A stretch of DNA of 61,961 nucleotides, filler included, from Globobulimina sp. (taxonomy: Eukaryota): the NCBI GenBank assembly GCA_003354225.1. It is 19 parts of 19 records of this genome, joined end to end, with 100 filler letters (N's around TTAATTAATTAA, not from the genome) between each part and the next. Parts side by side here need not be neighbours in the genome. Positions count along the whole stretch, not along the records: positions 13,072 to 16,238 come from PIVH01003523.1; 18 more parts are not named here. One strand, given 5' to 3'. Within the stretch, counting starts at the first letter, position 1. Each line of letters begins with the position of its first letter. The translations under genes were made by a program, and so were the position numbers. The notes beneath the pieces are model-generated. The model worked only from the letters and a program-made list of their open reading frames with translations. It was not told the DNA's origin and did no database searches. Of this stretch, positions 3,169-22,772 are shown one piece after another.

Positions 3169-3268
3169 NNNNNNNNNNNNNNNNNNNNNNNNNNNNNNNN
3201 NNNNNNNNNNNNTTAATTAATTAANNNNNNNNNNNNNNNNNNNNNNNNNNNNNNNNNNNNNNNNNNNN
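3169..3268. other. Artificial contig spacer (first of 18)
   Basis: N-run + TTAATTAATTAA (stops in all six frames) + N-run. Contigs: 1-3168, 3269-6436, 6537-9704, 9805-12971, 13072-16238, 16339-19505, 19606-22772, 22873-26039, 26140-29305, 29406-32571, 32672-35837, 35938-39103, 39204-42369, 42470-45635, 45736-48901, 49002-52166, 52267-55431, 55532-58696, 58797-61961. Confidence 0.99.
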
Positions 3269-9365: not shown

Positions 9366-9704
9366 ATGGGCAACACTTCGGCAATTGAAGGGGCAATTCC
9401 GCACTGGGATGAAACGGACTGGAATTCGTTAATTGATGGTTACATCAGAAAACATCAAAAACATAATGACATTCTTGCCAACCGAATTCCAAAGACATTA
9501 AACAAAATAATATACAATTATTCTTATCAAATTGCAATGAAATTTGTTACAAATTTGGTATTTGCAACATGGATAACCGAACCTATGACATTCATTGATG
9601 ATGTAACTGTTGAATATGTCAATCCACGTATTGCTGCTACATGTTTATTATGCAATTATCCAATCACAGCTGATATGTGCAATGAATTTATGTTTGAAGG
9701 AGCT
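9366..9704 (+). CDS. Hypothetical protein with N-terminal GYIR..IP motif, 3' partial
   Basis: MGNTS (possible myristoylation site), then LIDGYIRKH...RIPKTLNKIIYNY. Confidence 0.55.
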
Positions 9705-10650: not shown

Positions 10651-12379
10651 TCAGTTGTCTATATGTTTAATGTTCTTTGCGTTTCTTTCTTCAAACATCA
10701 ATTGAGCATCTTTTCCAATAAACAAATAAATCCACAACGAAATAACAACAAAACATGTAAAAGATGGCAAATATGCATAATATACCGCCGTTCTATTAGT
10801 GTCAATATGCGTTACTGATCCACTCCAAATAAATCCAGTCAATGCGGGTCCAATTGCTCTGACCAAAGCAGCCCATGTTTGTGCCATTCCATTTGCTCTC
10901 CCAACACAACTATTTGGCACTGAGTTATTGACCCAGCACATCGAAGCAACAAATATTATGCTCACAAAGCAAACTGCTGCCATAGAATTAATAAAAGCCA
11001 ATGTCAATGCTATAACTTCTGCGTTATCACTGCCCAGAATACCAAACTCATTAATTGTGGTAAATATGCTCGGCATTTGAAACATCACCACACACATTAC
11101 AACAGCGCAAATTATGCACATTGGGCGAAAGCTAAATCGTTTGAAAAACCACGGTTGAATAAAATATGTAAATACTAATAAACAGCCACCTGAGAAGGCC
11201 GTGCAATATCCAATCAATTGAGAGGAAAAACTCAATGCTTGCGCCATATAAACCGGATTCATTTCTTGATACATCATAAAAGCCATAACCAACAACGTAT
11301 ATATCACCAAACCATGGCACAATGTGGTGCCAAATACTAAAGCAAACACAGTTGAATATTCTTCAATAGTTTGCTTATCATTATCCTTTAAATCAGCCAT
11401 CAATAATCCTTGCCGTTCAGCGCTGGCTTCTGATCTCGAATAAGCTGTCAATGAATTATGAATGCCATCACCTGGACAGACCTCAACAACTGCCAGTTTT
11501 GCTGGATATTAATGTACAACATAACAAAAGCTATAAATATATAACAAATTAAAATATAAAAAAACATATTCCGAAATACGTACATAATTCTACAGCATCC
11601 ATTGATTTTGGATAACTGTCAAGAGTGTCAATCATCATTTTATCCGAAATCACAGAATGATAATCATCGCGGTCTGCATCGGACAGCTTAAATTGCTTAA
11701 AAGTTAACTTTTCGTCGCGAATAAATATCAATGTCCAAACTAATGCATTGCCGCTGATAAAAGCACCGATAACACATGGCAGCAAAAACGGATATTCATG
11801 GTCAAAGATCCAAAATTTGAATATGCCGACAGTTGGTATGTATTCATCATCAGATACATCGACATCATGTGTTTCTATAAATATGCCGCCACACATTGCT
11901 CCCAGCACAGACCCAAAACCGTAGGATATTGCTAATGTGCTGAAGGCCCAGGCTCTGTTGCTGCCATCTGTGACATCGGCGAGGTACGCTTTGATTACAC
12001 CCAGATTGCCATTAAAAAAGCCACCGATACAGCGGGCACCAATTGCCATGACAAAGCTTGTGGATAATCCAAAAGAGAGAATTGCGATGGTACTGAATAC
12101 CAAACCAATTAGCAATGATATACGACGTCCCCATTTATCAGAGGCTAATCCCCAGGCATAGCAACATAGAAATTGACAAAAACAGAAGCTGGCATTCAGA
12201 ATTGATGTATAAATGCCTAACAATTCAGGCCTAATTCCGAAATCCCGCACCATGAATACAACCATTGGTAACAGCACCGTTATTTGATACGCTTCGTTTA
12301 ATTGCACAAAAAAAACTGCCCATAATTTTTCATCTGTTAAAAGAGGTTTTTTTACACTTTTCGTTGACAGTGTTGACAT
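10651..12379 (-). CDS. MFS transporter (ZIF/MFSD10/TetA-like)
   Basis: MFS motif A (WGLASDKWGRR), GGFFNGNLGVIKAYLADVTD and GRANGMAQ. GT-AG intron 11583-11502 joins the two ORFs in frame. Confidence 0.9.
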
Positions 12380-14674: not shown

Positions 14675-14817
14675 TACTAACTTGACACTGGCGTATTTTG
14701 CAAGGGTATATAATAAATTGTGTAAATATTTTATCAAAAAAAACGCCTATAAAACGTTTTATTTTTAACGAACCTAAGCCTCCAAACTTTAAGTAACGCA
14801 ACAAAATTTCACAGTTC

Positions 14818-16238
14818 ATGTCAAACAACGAAATAATTAATATTCAAGTAGGCAAAGGCGGAATTAACGTTGGACTTTTATTTTGGCGGCAAATATTGCA
14901 GGAACATGCTCTTGGTCTGGATGGTGTATTTCGTGGAAATCGATTAGATCCAGACAATGAACTGCGTCTTGATAGAATAAATTCATATTTTTATGAAAAA
15001 GGGCGCGGAGTCTTAGCGACTGGTTATATTCGGCAATCTATCGAATCAAAATATAAATCATTGGCCTATATACCATCAGATATTAAAAAACTTTGTAAAC
15101 AGTATATTGGTTCATTCAACGCAGGACATTATGTCCCCAGATCAATATTTATCGATTGCGATCCCAAACAGATTGATTCCATTCGAATGTCACATTTGCG
15201 AAATGTATTTACTTCAAACAACTTTATTGTTGGACAAGGCGGGAATGGCAATAATTGGGCAATGGGCTATCACAGTAAACACATTCTGCAGCAAATTATG
15301 AACAATGTCCGATTTGAGGCTGAAAACTGTGATTATCTGCAAGGATTCCAGCTGGTTCATAGCATTGGCGGTGGTACCGGCAGTGGATTAACATCCAATT
15401 TATTAGCTTCATTAAAAGATAATTATCCACATACAATAAATCAGACATTCACAATATATCCATCACCAAAAGTGTCAAGTTTTGTGGTTGAAGCGTACAA
15501 TGCAACATTGTCAATAAACAAATTGATACAATATGCGGATCAAACTTTTGTAATCGACAATGAAGCAGTTTTTAATATTTGTCATAATGTTTTGAAACAA
15601 AGAGAGCCGACCTATGATGATTTAAATTGGATTGTATCGAATGGAATGAGTGGAAGTACAGCATCCTATCGGTTTGCAGGTGGAATGAATTCGACATTGC
15701 GACGGTTTGGTATAAATATGGTATCGTTTCCGAGATTGCATTTCTTGCTCTTATCTCATGCTCCACTGTATGCTGCAGGACAGGGACACAAACAAAAGCT
15801 GACTGTGCAAGAATTGACTGATCAAATATGGTCATCCCGCAATTTCTTTGCAAACATCAAGCCTGAGGATGGCAAATATTTATCAGTTTCAACTGCGTAT
15901 AGAGGATGTATATCAACTCCAGAATATGACGATGAGAGTGCGAAAATTATGCAGAAAATGGCAGATGACTTCGTAGTATGGATTCCAAATAATATTAAAC
16001 CATCAATTTATTCAATACCACCTCCGAATATATGCATGACAGCGAATTTGATTGGAAACACGAGTGCTATCAAAGGCGTATTGCAAAGGATATCAGCACA
16101 GTTTGCGCAAATGTTTAAAAGGAAGGCATTTTTGCATTTTTATATGAAGATAGGAATGGAAATGCAGGAGTTTCAAGATGCTGATAAAAATGTGCGAAAT
16201 TTGGTGACTGAATATCAGGATAAACAGGATATTGTGGT
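14818..16238 (+). CDS. Divergent beta2-tubulin-like protein with internal GYIR-motif insertion
   Basis: GGGTGSG, PSPKVS, FPRLHF, QELTDQIWSSRNF, RISAQFAQMFKRKAFLH and EFQDADKNVR match the foraminiferal type-2 beta-tubulin pattern. Insertion at about 15010-15105. Confidence 0.93.
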
Positions 16239-16995: not shown

Positions 16996-18348
16996 TCATA
17001 CATCTGCGGCAATGTCAATGTAATCAGTGATTAGGTCTCTAACACAATGATCAGCCTCAACAAATTCCATCTCATCCATTCCTTCGCCTTTATACCAATG
17101 CAAAAACGCTTTACGCTTAAACATCTTAGCAAATTGAGATGATATTCTTTTGAAAACAGTTCCTATCGAAGTGCTATTTGTAATCATTGCTACGCTCTGT
17201 TTTATGTTTAATACTGGTTTCCTTACAAAAGTAGATATAACTTCGTTTTCTGTCACAATTGGAATATCCTCAACCTTTATAGCACCGACATTTCCGTCAC
17301 TTCTATGCAACACAATTGTGGATAAATTGACGCAGTCATTATTATAATATGAATATGACCGATGTTGAGGTTCAAATAATTTGTGTACCAAATCCAATGT
17401 GTCCAGATTAGATATTTCATTTGGTGCAATGTTTCCATTTCGATCATAAAACGGTGCTCTGGAACTTGTAAAATATTTCAATTTCGGACGTTTCACCATT
17501 TCATTGAGAAACAATCTCACTGTAAATCCATAAGAATCGTTATAACGAAACAATGACATAATATCATTTACCATTTGATTTGCAATGAAATTGAGGTCTA
17601 CGAAACGCGTTTGCTTGATTTTAAATTGATAATAAGCCAAATTATATAAAGCTTCATTGTCAAAAACAAAAGTACCATCACAAAAATCATTCATTTTATT
17701 CACTGACAAAATAGCATTGTACGGCACAGTGATTTGTCCGCCAGTTTTTGGAGAAGGAAATACGGAGAAACTCATTATATCCAAATGAGGGAAATTAGAT
17801 TTGATTTGTTCCATTAACAATGTCCCCATTCCCGATCCCGTGCCACCGCCCATTGCATGAAATATTTGTATACCTTGCGGTGCTCCGTATGATTCAATCT
17901 CGTTTCTGAATGCATCCATACATTCTTCCATCAGTTCAGCACCTTCGGTGTAATGCCCTTTTGCCCAATTATAGCCAGTTCCGCTTGCACCAAATATGAA
18001 ATTATGCGGATTGCAAATGTTGATGAATGGAGACTGTTTAATAATGTCCAAAGTGCCTGATTCTAAGTCAATTTGTATAGCTCTTGCCGTGATACAGGTT
18101 TTTGATGATGATCGTATGCATGAATTGGTGATGGATTTACTGTCTGTCGCGTATTCATCCATTATGGATTCAAAAAAGAGTGTATTCATTGCGTTGCCGC
18201 ATTGTCCCAATGCGATACTGATGATACAATTTGCGTCATAAAATTGAATACAAAGTTGAATGATGGGGTCAGGGATGGTTTGTGACAATGATTTCTGTAT
18301 AAAACGACAGTATCCGGACACAACCAGATGTACAGTACAAAGTGACAT
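16996..18348 (-). CDS. Divergent beta2-tubulin-like protein with N-terminal GYxR-motif extension
   Basis: GQCGN, DLESGT, FGASGTGYNWAKGHYTEGAEL, GGGTGSG and RISSQFAKMFKRKAFLHWYKGEGMDEMEF are present. The middle region is strongly diverged and there is no acidic tail. Confidence 0.92.
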   Translation of the reverse strand: MSLCTVHLVVSGYCRFIQKSLSQTIPDPIIQLCIQFYDANCIISIALGQCGNAMNTLFFESIMDEYATDSKSITNSCIRSSSKTCITARAIQIDLESGTLDIIKQSPFINICNPHNFIFGASGTGYNWAKGHYTEGAELMEECMDAFRNEIESYGAPQGIQIFHAMGGGTGSGMGTLLMEQIKSNFPHLDIMSFSVFPSPKTGGQITVPYNAILSVNKMNDFCDGTFVFDNEALYNLAYYQFKIKQTRFVDLNFIANQMVNDIMSLFRYNDSYGFTVRLFLNEMVKRPKLKYFTSSRAPFYDRNGNIAPNEISNLDTLDLVHKLFEPQHRSYSYYNNDCVNLSTIVLHRSDGNVGAIKVEDIPIVTENEVISTFVRKPVLNIKQSVAMITNSTSIGTVFKRISSQFAKMFKRKAFLHWYKGEGMDEMEFVEADHCVRDLITDYIDIAADV

Positions 18349-18419
18349 GTTTAATTCCAGAAATAAGGAGAAAGACCAGCAAAAAAACAAAACATACAAC
18401 GTTCACACAAATACATTAA

Positions 18420-21216: not shown

Positions 21217-21334
21217 ACATTTGTCTGCCGTTCTTTATATGTCGCAAATCAATCGCCAAATCGATCGTTCTCACTTTAGATTGAAAAAGCAGAGTTCAGT
21301 GAAAAAAAGACACAAAAACACAATCGCAATATGC

Positions 21335-22772
21335 ATGGTGCGTGAAATTGTGAATATCAATGTTGGGAATTGTGGCAGTTGGATTGGTCATGATTTTTGG
21401 AATACAATCAGCACAGAACATAATTTGGATAAAAACGGAAATTGTACATTTTTCGATGATACTATAATGGATAAAATCGATGTATATTTCAATGAATCTT
21501 GCACTCAATCTCAAAAATACGAACCCCGCACAATATTTATTGATTTAGAAGCAAGCACATTGGACACAATTACAGCATCATCCATCAGTAACTTGTTCAA
21601 ACCCGATAATTTCAATTGTTTCAGCAACAATGCCACAGCGCATTTATTTCCAAATGGATATTACCATCAAAGCGCAGATACATTGGACACAATCAAAGAT
21701 TGCATAAATCATGAACTAGAACGTTGTGATTGTTTGCAAGGATGGCAACTTATGCACTCATTGGGTGGCGGTACTGGCTCAGGTTTAGGGACAAAAATTA
21801 TGACATATTTAAGGGATTTCTGGCCTGATAAAATAAATTCAACTTATTGTATATTCCCAAACTCTCAAAGCGACGCTCCAGAGCCATATAATGTGATATT
21901 AGCAATGAATCAAATCATTGAAAATTGCGATTATGTAATGATTTTCGACAATGATTCGTTATGGAATATTACAAAAAATATGTTAAAACAGGAAAAAGCA
22001 AGCTTTGCTGATTTAAATTGGTTAATTTCATTGGCGATGAGCGGCGTTACGTCTCCGTTGAGATTTAGAGGCAATTACAATGACACACTGTTGAAAATGT
22101 GTGTGGATTTAACACCATTTCCCAGGTTGCATTTTTTTGTTTGTTCACATGGCCCTTTTTTTAATATCAAACAAGGGGACAAATTGAAGTTATCTGCACA
22201 TGACGTTACCAATCAAATATGGTCAAAAAACAATTGTTTGGCCAATATTGATCCAGCAGATGGCAAATATTTGAGCAGCATATGTATATATCGACGGGAT
22301 TTAGTGGATTTAGAACTGAATTATAAAATCATTCATTCATTTATAAGAGAGAGTGAATTGGAGAATAGAAAGGTTTCAATGGATATTATAAACTTATTGT
22401 TGAAATATTTTACCTTTGGAAACAACAAAGGTGTTTTGCCAGACTATGGGGAAATATTTAAGAGCAAAGAGAGAGCCTGCAAAGATTTTGTGGCGTGGAT
22501 TCCAAATACGCATAAAACATCATTTATTGAGATTGCACCAAATACAACTTCGCTAAGTGGCACATTGATTGCTTCCACAACATCGATCGCATGTTTTTTA
22601 AAACGAATATTGAATGAATTTGAAACGTTGTTCAGTCAACAAAAGCAGCTTCATTTATATTTGAATGCAGGAATGGATGATATTGAATTTTTGGAATCTG
22701 GAGCAAATGTTAGAGATTTGATGGCTGAATATAATGATAGACAGTCAGTTAGGCAGTTATGCCGGCATTGGT
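21335..22772 (+). CDS. Divergent beta2-tubulin-like protein with insertion after strand S8
   Basis: MVREIV start, GGGTGSG, PFPRLHFF, DGKYLS and DFVAWIPN. Insert KIIHSFIRES...VSMDIINLLLKYF at 22325-22411. 3' end cut by the spacer. Confidence 0.92.

Follow-up and report, generated by a model that had tools for sequence, protein, structure and literature searches.

A short GYIR-IP box in divergent beta-tubulins and unrelated proteins of Foraminifera as a candidate portable docking module

Introduction

Tubulin is among the most constrained proteins of eukaryotes. The stretch of DNA analyzed here, referred to as the window, comprises 61,961 nucleotides of the foraminifer Globobulimina sp. (GenBank assembly GCA_003354225.1) and encodes three divergent beta-tubulins, each of which carries an extra segment at a different site. 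What are these segments, and what could they contribute to the proteins that contain them? Analysis of the window, together with searches of large protein collections, traced two of the segments clearly, and the third weakly, to a short box, named here the GYIR-IP box, for which a family, a set of hosts, a pattern of conservation and a distribution of positions could be established. This box is read here, with slightly more confidence than doubt, as a self-contained, portable docking box that would tie varied host proteins to one common partner, the hub. The reading is put forward because the same constraints were found in unrelated hosts, because the hydrophobic surface of the box appears oversized and because it contains an invariant Arg, Gly and Pro.

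Results and discussion

Three divergent beta-tubulins with extra segments

A preliminary description of this DNA had reported three tubulins with an extra segment on three separate contigs. This was borne out, as the open reading frames (ORFs) are intact and the Pfam Tubulin domain was matched far above its cut-off in genes 1, 2 and 3 (Table 1). Tubulin_C exceeded its cut-off in genes 1 and 3 and stayed below it in gene 2 (23.8 versus 26.6 bits). No fourth tubulin was detected in the window by tblastn. The three proteins share 32-33% pairwise identity, and among the best 60 solved-structure matches listed for each gene, beta-tubulin was found throughout, which sets the window tubulins nearer to this class than to any other class of tubulin. 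Judged by their sequences, genes 1-3 are members of the beta-tubulin fold and family and not canonical subunits. The set of canonical loops (T1 GQCGNQ, T4 GGGTGSG and T7 NxDLRK) is not kept in any of them. For gene 1, translation and alignment reproduced the loop states noted before (GQCGNQ changed to GKGGIN, NxDLRK changed to NSTLRR, GGGTGSG kept). T4 is likewise intact in genes 2 and 3, T7 is changed and T1 partially kept in both, and T3 is degenerate in gene 3.

The alignments also placed the extra segments at the sites that had been described. The segment of gene 1 lies in the H1-S2 loop, where query residue 103 pairs with beta residue 57, and that of gene 2 is N-terminal, with query residue 42 pairing with beta residue 4. 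Gene 3 contains approximately 42 added residues after S8, and its alignment falls into two pieces with a gap at beta residues 320-329.

Box copies in the window

A profile was built from 162 aligned motif copies that were taken from proteins of other records and included no row from the window. Scored with this profile in six frames, the window yielded four clear copies of 31.2 to 51.2 bits, which thereby belong to the family on outside evidence, followed by a next best piece of 6.4 bits. A regular expression search of the window found the motif exactly four times, at 15004-15114, 18333-18232, 9420-9530 and 55126-55230. Two of these matches, scoring 31.2 and 51.2 bits, confirm that the motif also opens the non-tubulin ORFs at 9366 and 55123. 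The extra segments, clearly so in tubulins 1 and 2, are copies of one portable box common to non-tubulin genes. The insert of tubulin 3 was not significant in the window-wide search (4.6 bits, E 1.9). Scored alone as a piece of 60 residues, it reached 8.0 bits with the whole motif in register, a score equaled by 4 of 5000 composition-preserving shuffles. Its earlier label as a weaker match is fair because an E-value of 1.9 across the window stands beside so few equally good shuffles, and a degenerate box copy is probable here rather than proven.

Pfam returned nothing beyond noise for the ORF at 9366, a relative of which (P0252) is among the box carriers identified below. The ORF at 55123 shares 81% identity with P0121, a protein of 209 residues from Globobulimina turgida with a precomputed Pfam SPRY assignment, and 74% with P0122. 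The four clear copies share only about 24-32% protein identity, and for this reason a recent mobile DNA element was rejected as the source of the box.

Sequence and predicted structure of the box

The box comprises about 33 residues and can be summarized as LLVxGYIRxIQ, a variable loop and IIPxxIxxLCxxFY. A short hydrophobic lead-in is followed by an opening helix with GYIR, a loop that ends in IIP and a second helix with IxxLCxxFY. Across the 162 aligned copies, the first half is marked by G (95%), Y (85%, with F in 10%), I (77%) and R (93%), and the second half by I (92%), P (97%), I (79%), L or I (91%), C (79%), F or Y (95%) and Y (67%). As the box is conserved across hosts of unrelated fold, the constraint must come from the box itself and not from the host. 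Hydrophobic residues occupy 16 of the 33 consensus positions, which in our judgment would exceed what a two-helix unit can bury on its own. AlphaFold modeling of the motif alone, based on 54 aligned copies, predicted helices at residues 3-7, 10-19 and 27-39 with a predicted local distance difference test score (pLDDT) of 73. In the model of tubulin 1, the insert forms helices at residues 69-78 and 87-97. An IQ-motif or calmodulin-binding reading of the box was considered and then dropped.

A foraminiferal family with many hosts

A first profile of 12 copies was run against 1.84 billion representative proteins and matched 164 of them at the chosen cut-off of E<=1e-3, giving a family of 164 protein clusters or more. 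Of 5161 candidates in a word-index search with the motif profile, 11 proteins reached E<=10, and these were mainly training rows. Local rescoring confirmed the box in 154 of 158 proteins, with 158 copies in total; exactly four proteins failed. Most copies are N-terminal (101 of 158, starting no more than 25 residues from the N-terminus), compared with 49 at internal and 8 at C-terminal positions; these counts are rough because many carriers are fragments.

A Pfam family was found in 34 of 146 scanned proteins. The hosts are tubulin (6), kelch (4), Arf (2), G-alpha (2), kinesin (2), the ubiquitin-conjugating enzyme (E2) family UQ_con (2), TLDc (2), SPRY (2) and Ras (1), together with one each of Ank, EF-hand, rotamase (peptidyl-prolyl isomerase, PPIase) and Helicase_C, three weak matches and four proteins with repeats or low complexity. 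These four, equal in number to the failures in local rescoring, were treated as false positives, and the tubulin share is inflated because tubulins contributed to the query profile. Clustering of the 154 carriers with the motif masked gave groups of 20 kelch proteins, 14 tubulins, 10 proteins of about 400 residues with faint kelch signals and 6 SPRY proteins, in addition to 78 singletons. For one carrier (P0146), the Protein Atlas pointed to kelch at 0.89, which is to be taken as a lead only, and a Protein Atlas query with the box itself gave no usable match.

Most often the box stands on the N-terminal side of a kelch-like propeller or of a SPRY, Ank or TLDc domain, but it was also located inside Ras, Arf and G-alpha domains and ahead of kinesin motors and E2 enzymes. 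In a Rab-like GTPase (P0260) it lies between the NKxD and SAx motifs, in an Arf protein (P0218) it follows strand 4, and in P0254 it is embedded in G-alpha. It immediately precedes the kinesin motor in P0224 and stands before the E2 core in P0244. An organism look-up for 30 carriers yielded 18 names, all 18 of which belong to Foraminifera (Bolivina argentea, Nonionella stella and Globobulimina turgida). A lineage-specific module of Foraminifera is the best reading of this distribution.

Several smaller features of the carriers were recorded. Two box copies each are present in P0195, P0206, P0240 and P0258. Some N-terminal carriers, such as the ORF at 9366-9704 and P0255, begin with MGN, which is compatible with N-myristoylation and, if so modified, would place these proteins on membranes. 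In many N-terminal carriers the box is directly followed by a short stretch of strong hydrophobicity; this is probably the first strand of a kelch-like propeller, and stretch and box may form one unit.

Comparison with cullin-RING ligase receptor boxes

The receptor-like layout of many carriers brings in a special case of docking, in which the box would act as a cullin-RING ligase receptor box (an analogue of the F-box, the SOCS/BC box or the DCAF motif) and bind a Skp1-, Elongin C- or DDB1-like adaptor. Carriers with kelch, SPRY or Ank domains would be ordinary substrate receptors, and those of the tubulin, kinesin and GTPase kind would serve as receptors by virtue of their fold, or as decoys, and deliver their own binding partners to the ligase. 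A role as cullin adaptor had been proposed before, and the layout agrees with it: as in F-box proteins, an N-terminal box (101 of 158 copies) is followed by kelch-like, SPRY, Ank or TLDc domains. The biggest carrier group combines the box with a kelch-like propeller (20 and 10 of 154 in two clusters), SPRY accounts for 6 carriers, Ank and TLDc are among the hosts, and two E2 enzymes (P0184 and P0244) carry the box. Receptor-box families typically show large lineage-specific expansions.

The homology part of the proposal gained no support, since neither profile nor fold similarity to SOCS or F-box was found in Pfam, in solved-structure profile searches or in fold searches. Pfam F-box and SOCS_box matched none of 12 motif pieces and none of 146 carriers, and two profile searches among 177,635 solved-structure sequences contained no F-box or SOCS protein at E<=10, each returning a single chance match at an E-value of about 1 (a TOR1 peptide and a PTS component). 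Foldseek gave 0 matches with a 41-residue motif model and VIA gave 432 chains at Z>=2, the best at 2.9, on unrelated helices; the model is too small for such searches. At about 33 residues, sequence and fold tests for SOCS or F-box relationship are weak.

A direct comparison with the known boxes gives a mixed picture. The F-box (PF00646/PF12937), the Skp1-binding box of SCF substrate receptors, is likewise a short helical box that is usually N-terminal, precedes kelch, SPRY, Ank or other binding domains and forms large lineage-specific families. In both boxes a hydrophobic residue and a Pro open a helix with i, i+3/4, i+7 hydrophobic spacing. The foraminiferal box differs in that its Pro lies ahead of the last helix and not the first, a conserved Trp is absent, its length is about 33 residues compared with 40-50, and it also occurs within tubulin and GTPase folds. 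The SOCS box (BC box plus Cul5 box, PF07525) shares the succession of helix, loop, (L/I)P and helix, a length of about 35-40 residues and an aromatic end; the arrangement resembles its Cul5-box half. SOCS boxes are joined to Ank, SPRY and small GTPase domains (ASB, SPSB and Rab40), as is the foraminiferal box. SOCS boxes are C-terminal, however, whereas the foraminiferal box is mostly N-terminal or internal, with only 8 of 158 copies C-terminal, and by eye its first helix did not fit the BC-box spacing. The DCAF helix-loop-helix or H-box, which docks receptors on DDB1, lies N-terminal to a beta-propeller, as the box does in its kelch-like carriers.

The breadth of the hosts also speaks against a ligase receptor, since Arf, Ras, G-alpha, kinesin, E2, PPIase and helicase proteins make up a wider range than a substrate-receptor box predicts and known receptor boxes do not habitually insert within GTPase or tubulin folds. 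Moreover, the H1-S2 copy would face the microtubule lumen, beyond the reach of a ligase, if the loop lies as described in excerpts of PMC11361732. A cullin-RING receptor box is therefore regarded as an unlikely, narrower version of the docking reading.

Conservation and descent of the tubulin carriers

Two proteins of N. stella, one of B. argentea and several others have the insert in the H1-S2 loop at the same site; P0006, P0027, P0096 and P0124 are among these carriers. The N-terminal form was found in as many proteins of each species, two of N. stella and one of B. argentea, and in several others. Gene 1 shares 62% identity with P0006 of N. stella. When insert and tubulin body are compared with gene 1 separately, the insert reaches 75 versus 61% identity in P0006, 62 versus 53% in P0027 and 50 versus 51% in P0096; conservation of the H1-S2 insert is no lower than that of the tubulin body. 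Comparison of gene 1 with contigs of a close relative gave, by a crude count, 22 synonymous and 11 non-synonymous differences, which points to purifying selection on the gene.

A tubulin tree was calculated from the window genes and foraminiferal or unnamed sequences after removal of the motif columns. The H1-S2 carriers form a single clade (support of 92 in the Shimodaira-Hasegawa-like approximate likelihood ratio test, SH-aLRT), window gene 2 is sister to P0243 (99) on long branches, P0057 pairs with P0101 (99), and the remainder of the tree is unresolved. The earlier suggestion that tubulins were recruited independently several times was not borne out by this phylogeny: in approximately unbiased (AU) tests, neither the grouping of the six N-terminal carriers in one clade (p 0.565) nor that of all 11 carriers (p 0.47) was rejected. 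Since no single clade is rejected, the tree does not fix the number of gene lineages that acquired the box. The box occupies at least two placements in tubulin, or three if the insert of tubulin 3 is real. Of 8 carriers of the H1-S2 type, 6 have another residue in place of Gln11 in the T1 loop; all 9 carriers of the N-terminal type, window gene 2 included, keep it.

Probable retention of the inserts

The segments might be absent from the mature proteins as unrecognized introns, or the genes might be decaying or neutral copies. The inserts are in frame, however, and the three tubulin ORFs stay open across 450-479 residues. In contigs of reads from four sequencing runs, no joint that skips an insert and no indel was detected. 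X1 contigs span 14813-15137 and thus cross the insert of gene 1. The flanks of this insert and its final bases are covered by X6 and X7, which stem from a relative of 90-99% similarity and the RNA status of which is a guess. Proteins of N. stella and B. argentea keep inserts at the same tubulin sites; the EukProt records of both species presumably derive from their public polyA libraries. Those public sequence data are polyA mRNA libraries according to an excerpt of PMC8153729. No RNA run containing the window's own gene was listed, and every gene has degenerate nucleotide loops (T1 and T7 in gene 1, T7 in gene 2, T3 and T7 in gene 3), as would be expected if the genes were artefacts or in decay. 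The recurrence of the insert at the same site in other genera, its conservation at no less than the level of the protein body and the excess of synonymous differences in the close relative make such an origin highly improbable.

A proposed docking box and its predicted luminal position in microtubules

Docking, the hub and a consequence for the polymer state of tubulin are put forward here as a proposal. The invariant Arg, Gly and Pro, together with the exposed hydrophobic residues, would bind the common hub, and this binding would hold diverse hosts at a shared complex or location. The two box helices presumably fold back on each other and bring the ends of the box together, which would allow insertion in surface loops as well as at termini. 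Tubulin would have captured the box at its N-terminus and in the H1-S2 loop, with a possible third capture behind S8, and the tubulin carriers would be old, selected and divergent beta-like paralogues. In the nucleotide-binding domain of tubulin and FtsZ the strand order is 3-2-1-4-5-6 and the starts of S1 and S2 adjoin, so that boxes at the N-terminus and in the H1-S2 loop may sit at nearly the same spot.

The H1-S2 loop is described in excerpts of PMC11361732 as protruding at the inner surface of the microtubule and as accepting GFP11 with 16-residue linkers on both sides while function is kept. The engineered tags in this loop (GFP11-i and His; PMC11361732, excerpts) indicate that tens of residues are compatible with folding and microtubule assembly in a lumen-facing loop. 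These tags are artificial, whereas the window insert is natural, conserved and located in paralogues with altered nucleotide-binding loops. Because the loop tolerates GFP11 and its linkers, the H1-S2 carrier could still assemble; because it is luminal, the box could be reached from the cytoplasm only in unpolymerized tubulin or in open polymers. Free dimers and open polymers would thus be the forms that are coupled to the hub. Foraminiferal microtubules convert to helical filaments that keep lateral contacts, as reported in excerpts of PMC4990898, and such filaments would be an example of an open polymer that exposes the H1-S2 box.

The same luminal position (PMC11361732, excerpts) and the same retained lateral contacts (PMC4990898, excerpts) would also suit a box that binds itself. 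It would then serve as an oligomerization unit on soluble hosts and as a built-in luminal inner protein on tubulin, where contacts across subunits could shift lateral contacts and favor the helical filaments or paracrystals of Foraminifera. A hydrophobic surface beyond the need of a two-helix unit fits this idea, as does the role of the loop in lateral contacts. It leaves unexplained, however, why E2, PPIase, kelch and SPRY proteins need the box, and with Arg, Gly and Pro invariant, a specific partner seems likelier than a generic bundle. Self-binding is considered quite unlikely on balance, and docking to a common hub is retained as the preferred reading.

Several observations weigh against docking as well. 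The insert of tubulin 1 was modeled at low confidence, with a block-mean pLDDT of 52-61 over residues 61-100. Read coverage of the window tubulin genes in the four runs was too small to call expression. Many carriers are fragments from short contigs, which makes the N-terminal and internal counts approximate, and the list of hosts is tilted to tubulin, as 9 of 12 rows in the query profile came from this family. The box is without a detectable relative in Pfam families or solved structures, so that docking to a partner is a prediction from sequence logic alone.

Relation to known foraminiferal tubulins and wider meaning

The beta2-tubulins of Retaria are divergent, fast-evolving foraminiferal paralogues that are thought to be neofunctionalized (Habura 2005 and Hou 2013, as cited in excerpts of PMC5455982). 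The window genes resemble them as lineage-specific, fast-evolving foraminiferal beta-tubulin paralogues, although they are placed at the level of beta-tubulin only. Unlike the window genes, beta2-tubulin is described in terms of substitutions and rate shifts and of no inserted module in the excerpted text of PMC4990898 and PMC5455982; the word insertion occurs 0 times in the former paper and 3 times in the latter, never with reference to tubulin.

A description of the box was found neither in Pfam nor among solved structures nor in the open-access literature searched (supplements excluded), and the same literature contained no description of a natural modular insertion in tubulin. One short module is thus present at two or three sites of beta-tubulin and in unrelated folds across several foraminiferal genera. 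It represents a clean natural case of one mini-domain that is tolerated in loops of unrelated folds, which is relevant to protein evolution and engineering, and it offers a concrete, testable handle on the organization of the unusual microtubule system of Foraminifera. Once found, the partner of the box would connect many unannotated foraminiferal proteins.

Taken further, a hub system peculiar to Foraminifera might exist, perhaps in the form of a cullin-type ligase that uses a novel receptor box and counts whole cytoskeletal and signaling folds among its receptors; this extension is doubtful. If it were true, box-bearing paralogues of tubulin, kinesin and GTPase fold would be adaptors or decoys, and soluble tubulin, microtubule ends or GTPase effectors would be coupled to the hub. 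Reticulopodial microtubules, which assemble and disassemble very fast, would thereby come under a dedicated layer of control.

Table 1. Tubulin genes, box copies and further box-carrying ORFs in the window
Feature	Position	Strand	Evidence and remarks
Divergent beta-tubulin gene 1	14818..16238	+	Pfam Tubulin E 1.4e-52 (ORF 14818-16236, +), Tubulin_C E 2.4e-23; 3' end cut by contig end
GYIR-IP box, H1-S2 loop of tubulin 1	15007..15120	+	40.1 bits, profile without window rows
Beta-tubulin gene 2, highly divergent, box at N-terminus	16996..18348	-	Pfam Tubulin E 1.6e-44 (ORF 16996-18399, -); solved-structure matches
GYIR-IP box, N-terminus of tubulin 2 (residues 1-41)	18226..18348	-	46.4 bits
Divergent beta-tubulin gene 3	21335..22772	+	Pfam Tubulin E 2.2e-46 (ORF 21221-22771, +); 3' end cut by contig end
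Possible degenerate GYIR-IP box after S8, tubulin 3	22328..22411	+	G, Y and P replaced; 4.6 bits, E 1.9
ORF with MG... start, uncharacterized downstream domain	9366..9704	+	Box 9408-9527, 31.2 bits; ORF cut by contig end
ORF with box, then start of SPRY domain	55123..55431	+	Box 55123-55236, 51.2 bits; ORF cut by contig end

Window layout and other genes

The window is not a single locus and consists of 19 contigs of 3165-3168 bp each, arranged by falling length from 3168 to 3165 bp. At 3169-3268 and at each later junction, the link between contigs consists of 44 N, 12 bases and 44 N. The 12 bases probably are a stop-codon spacer, as ORFs that enter the spacer finish with LIN and then stop; the spacer is a product of window assembly and carries no biology. 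The genes of the window are eukaryotic, densely packed and poor in introns, and the nearest relatives of the encoded proteins are foraminiferal.

An EF-2/G-like gene is split over two ORFs on the minus strand at 39457-41758, with GTP_EFTU at 40946-41758 and EFG_III/IV/C at 39457-40320; the halves are about 600 bp apart, and an intron or a frameshift may account for the split. A major facilitator superfamily (MFS) transporter at 10651-12379 (-) likewise extends over two neighboring ORFs, probably due to an intron. Two convergent sulfotransferase genes (Sulfotransfer_4, E 1e-41 and 4e-52) share one contig at 43698-45494. An ORF of the penicillin-amidase family (E 6.7e-89), which is better known from bacteria, was located at 55534-57378 (+), and either a transfer or a contaminant contig could explain it. 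An ORF with a membrane attack complex (MAC)/perforin domain (E 2e-07) was detected at 47196-48113 (-).

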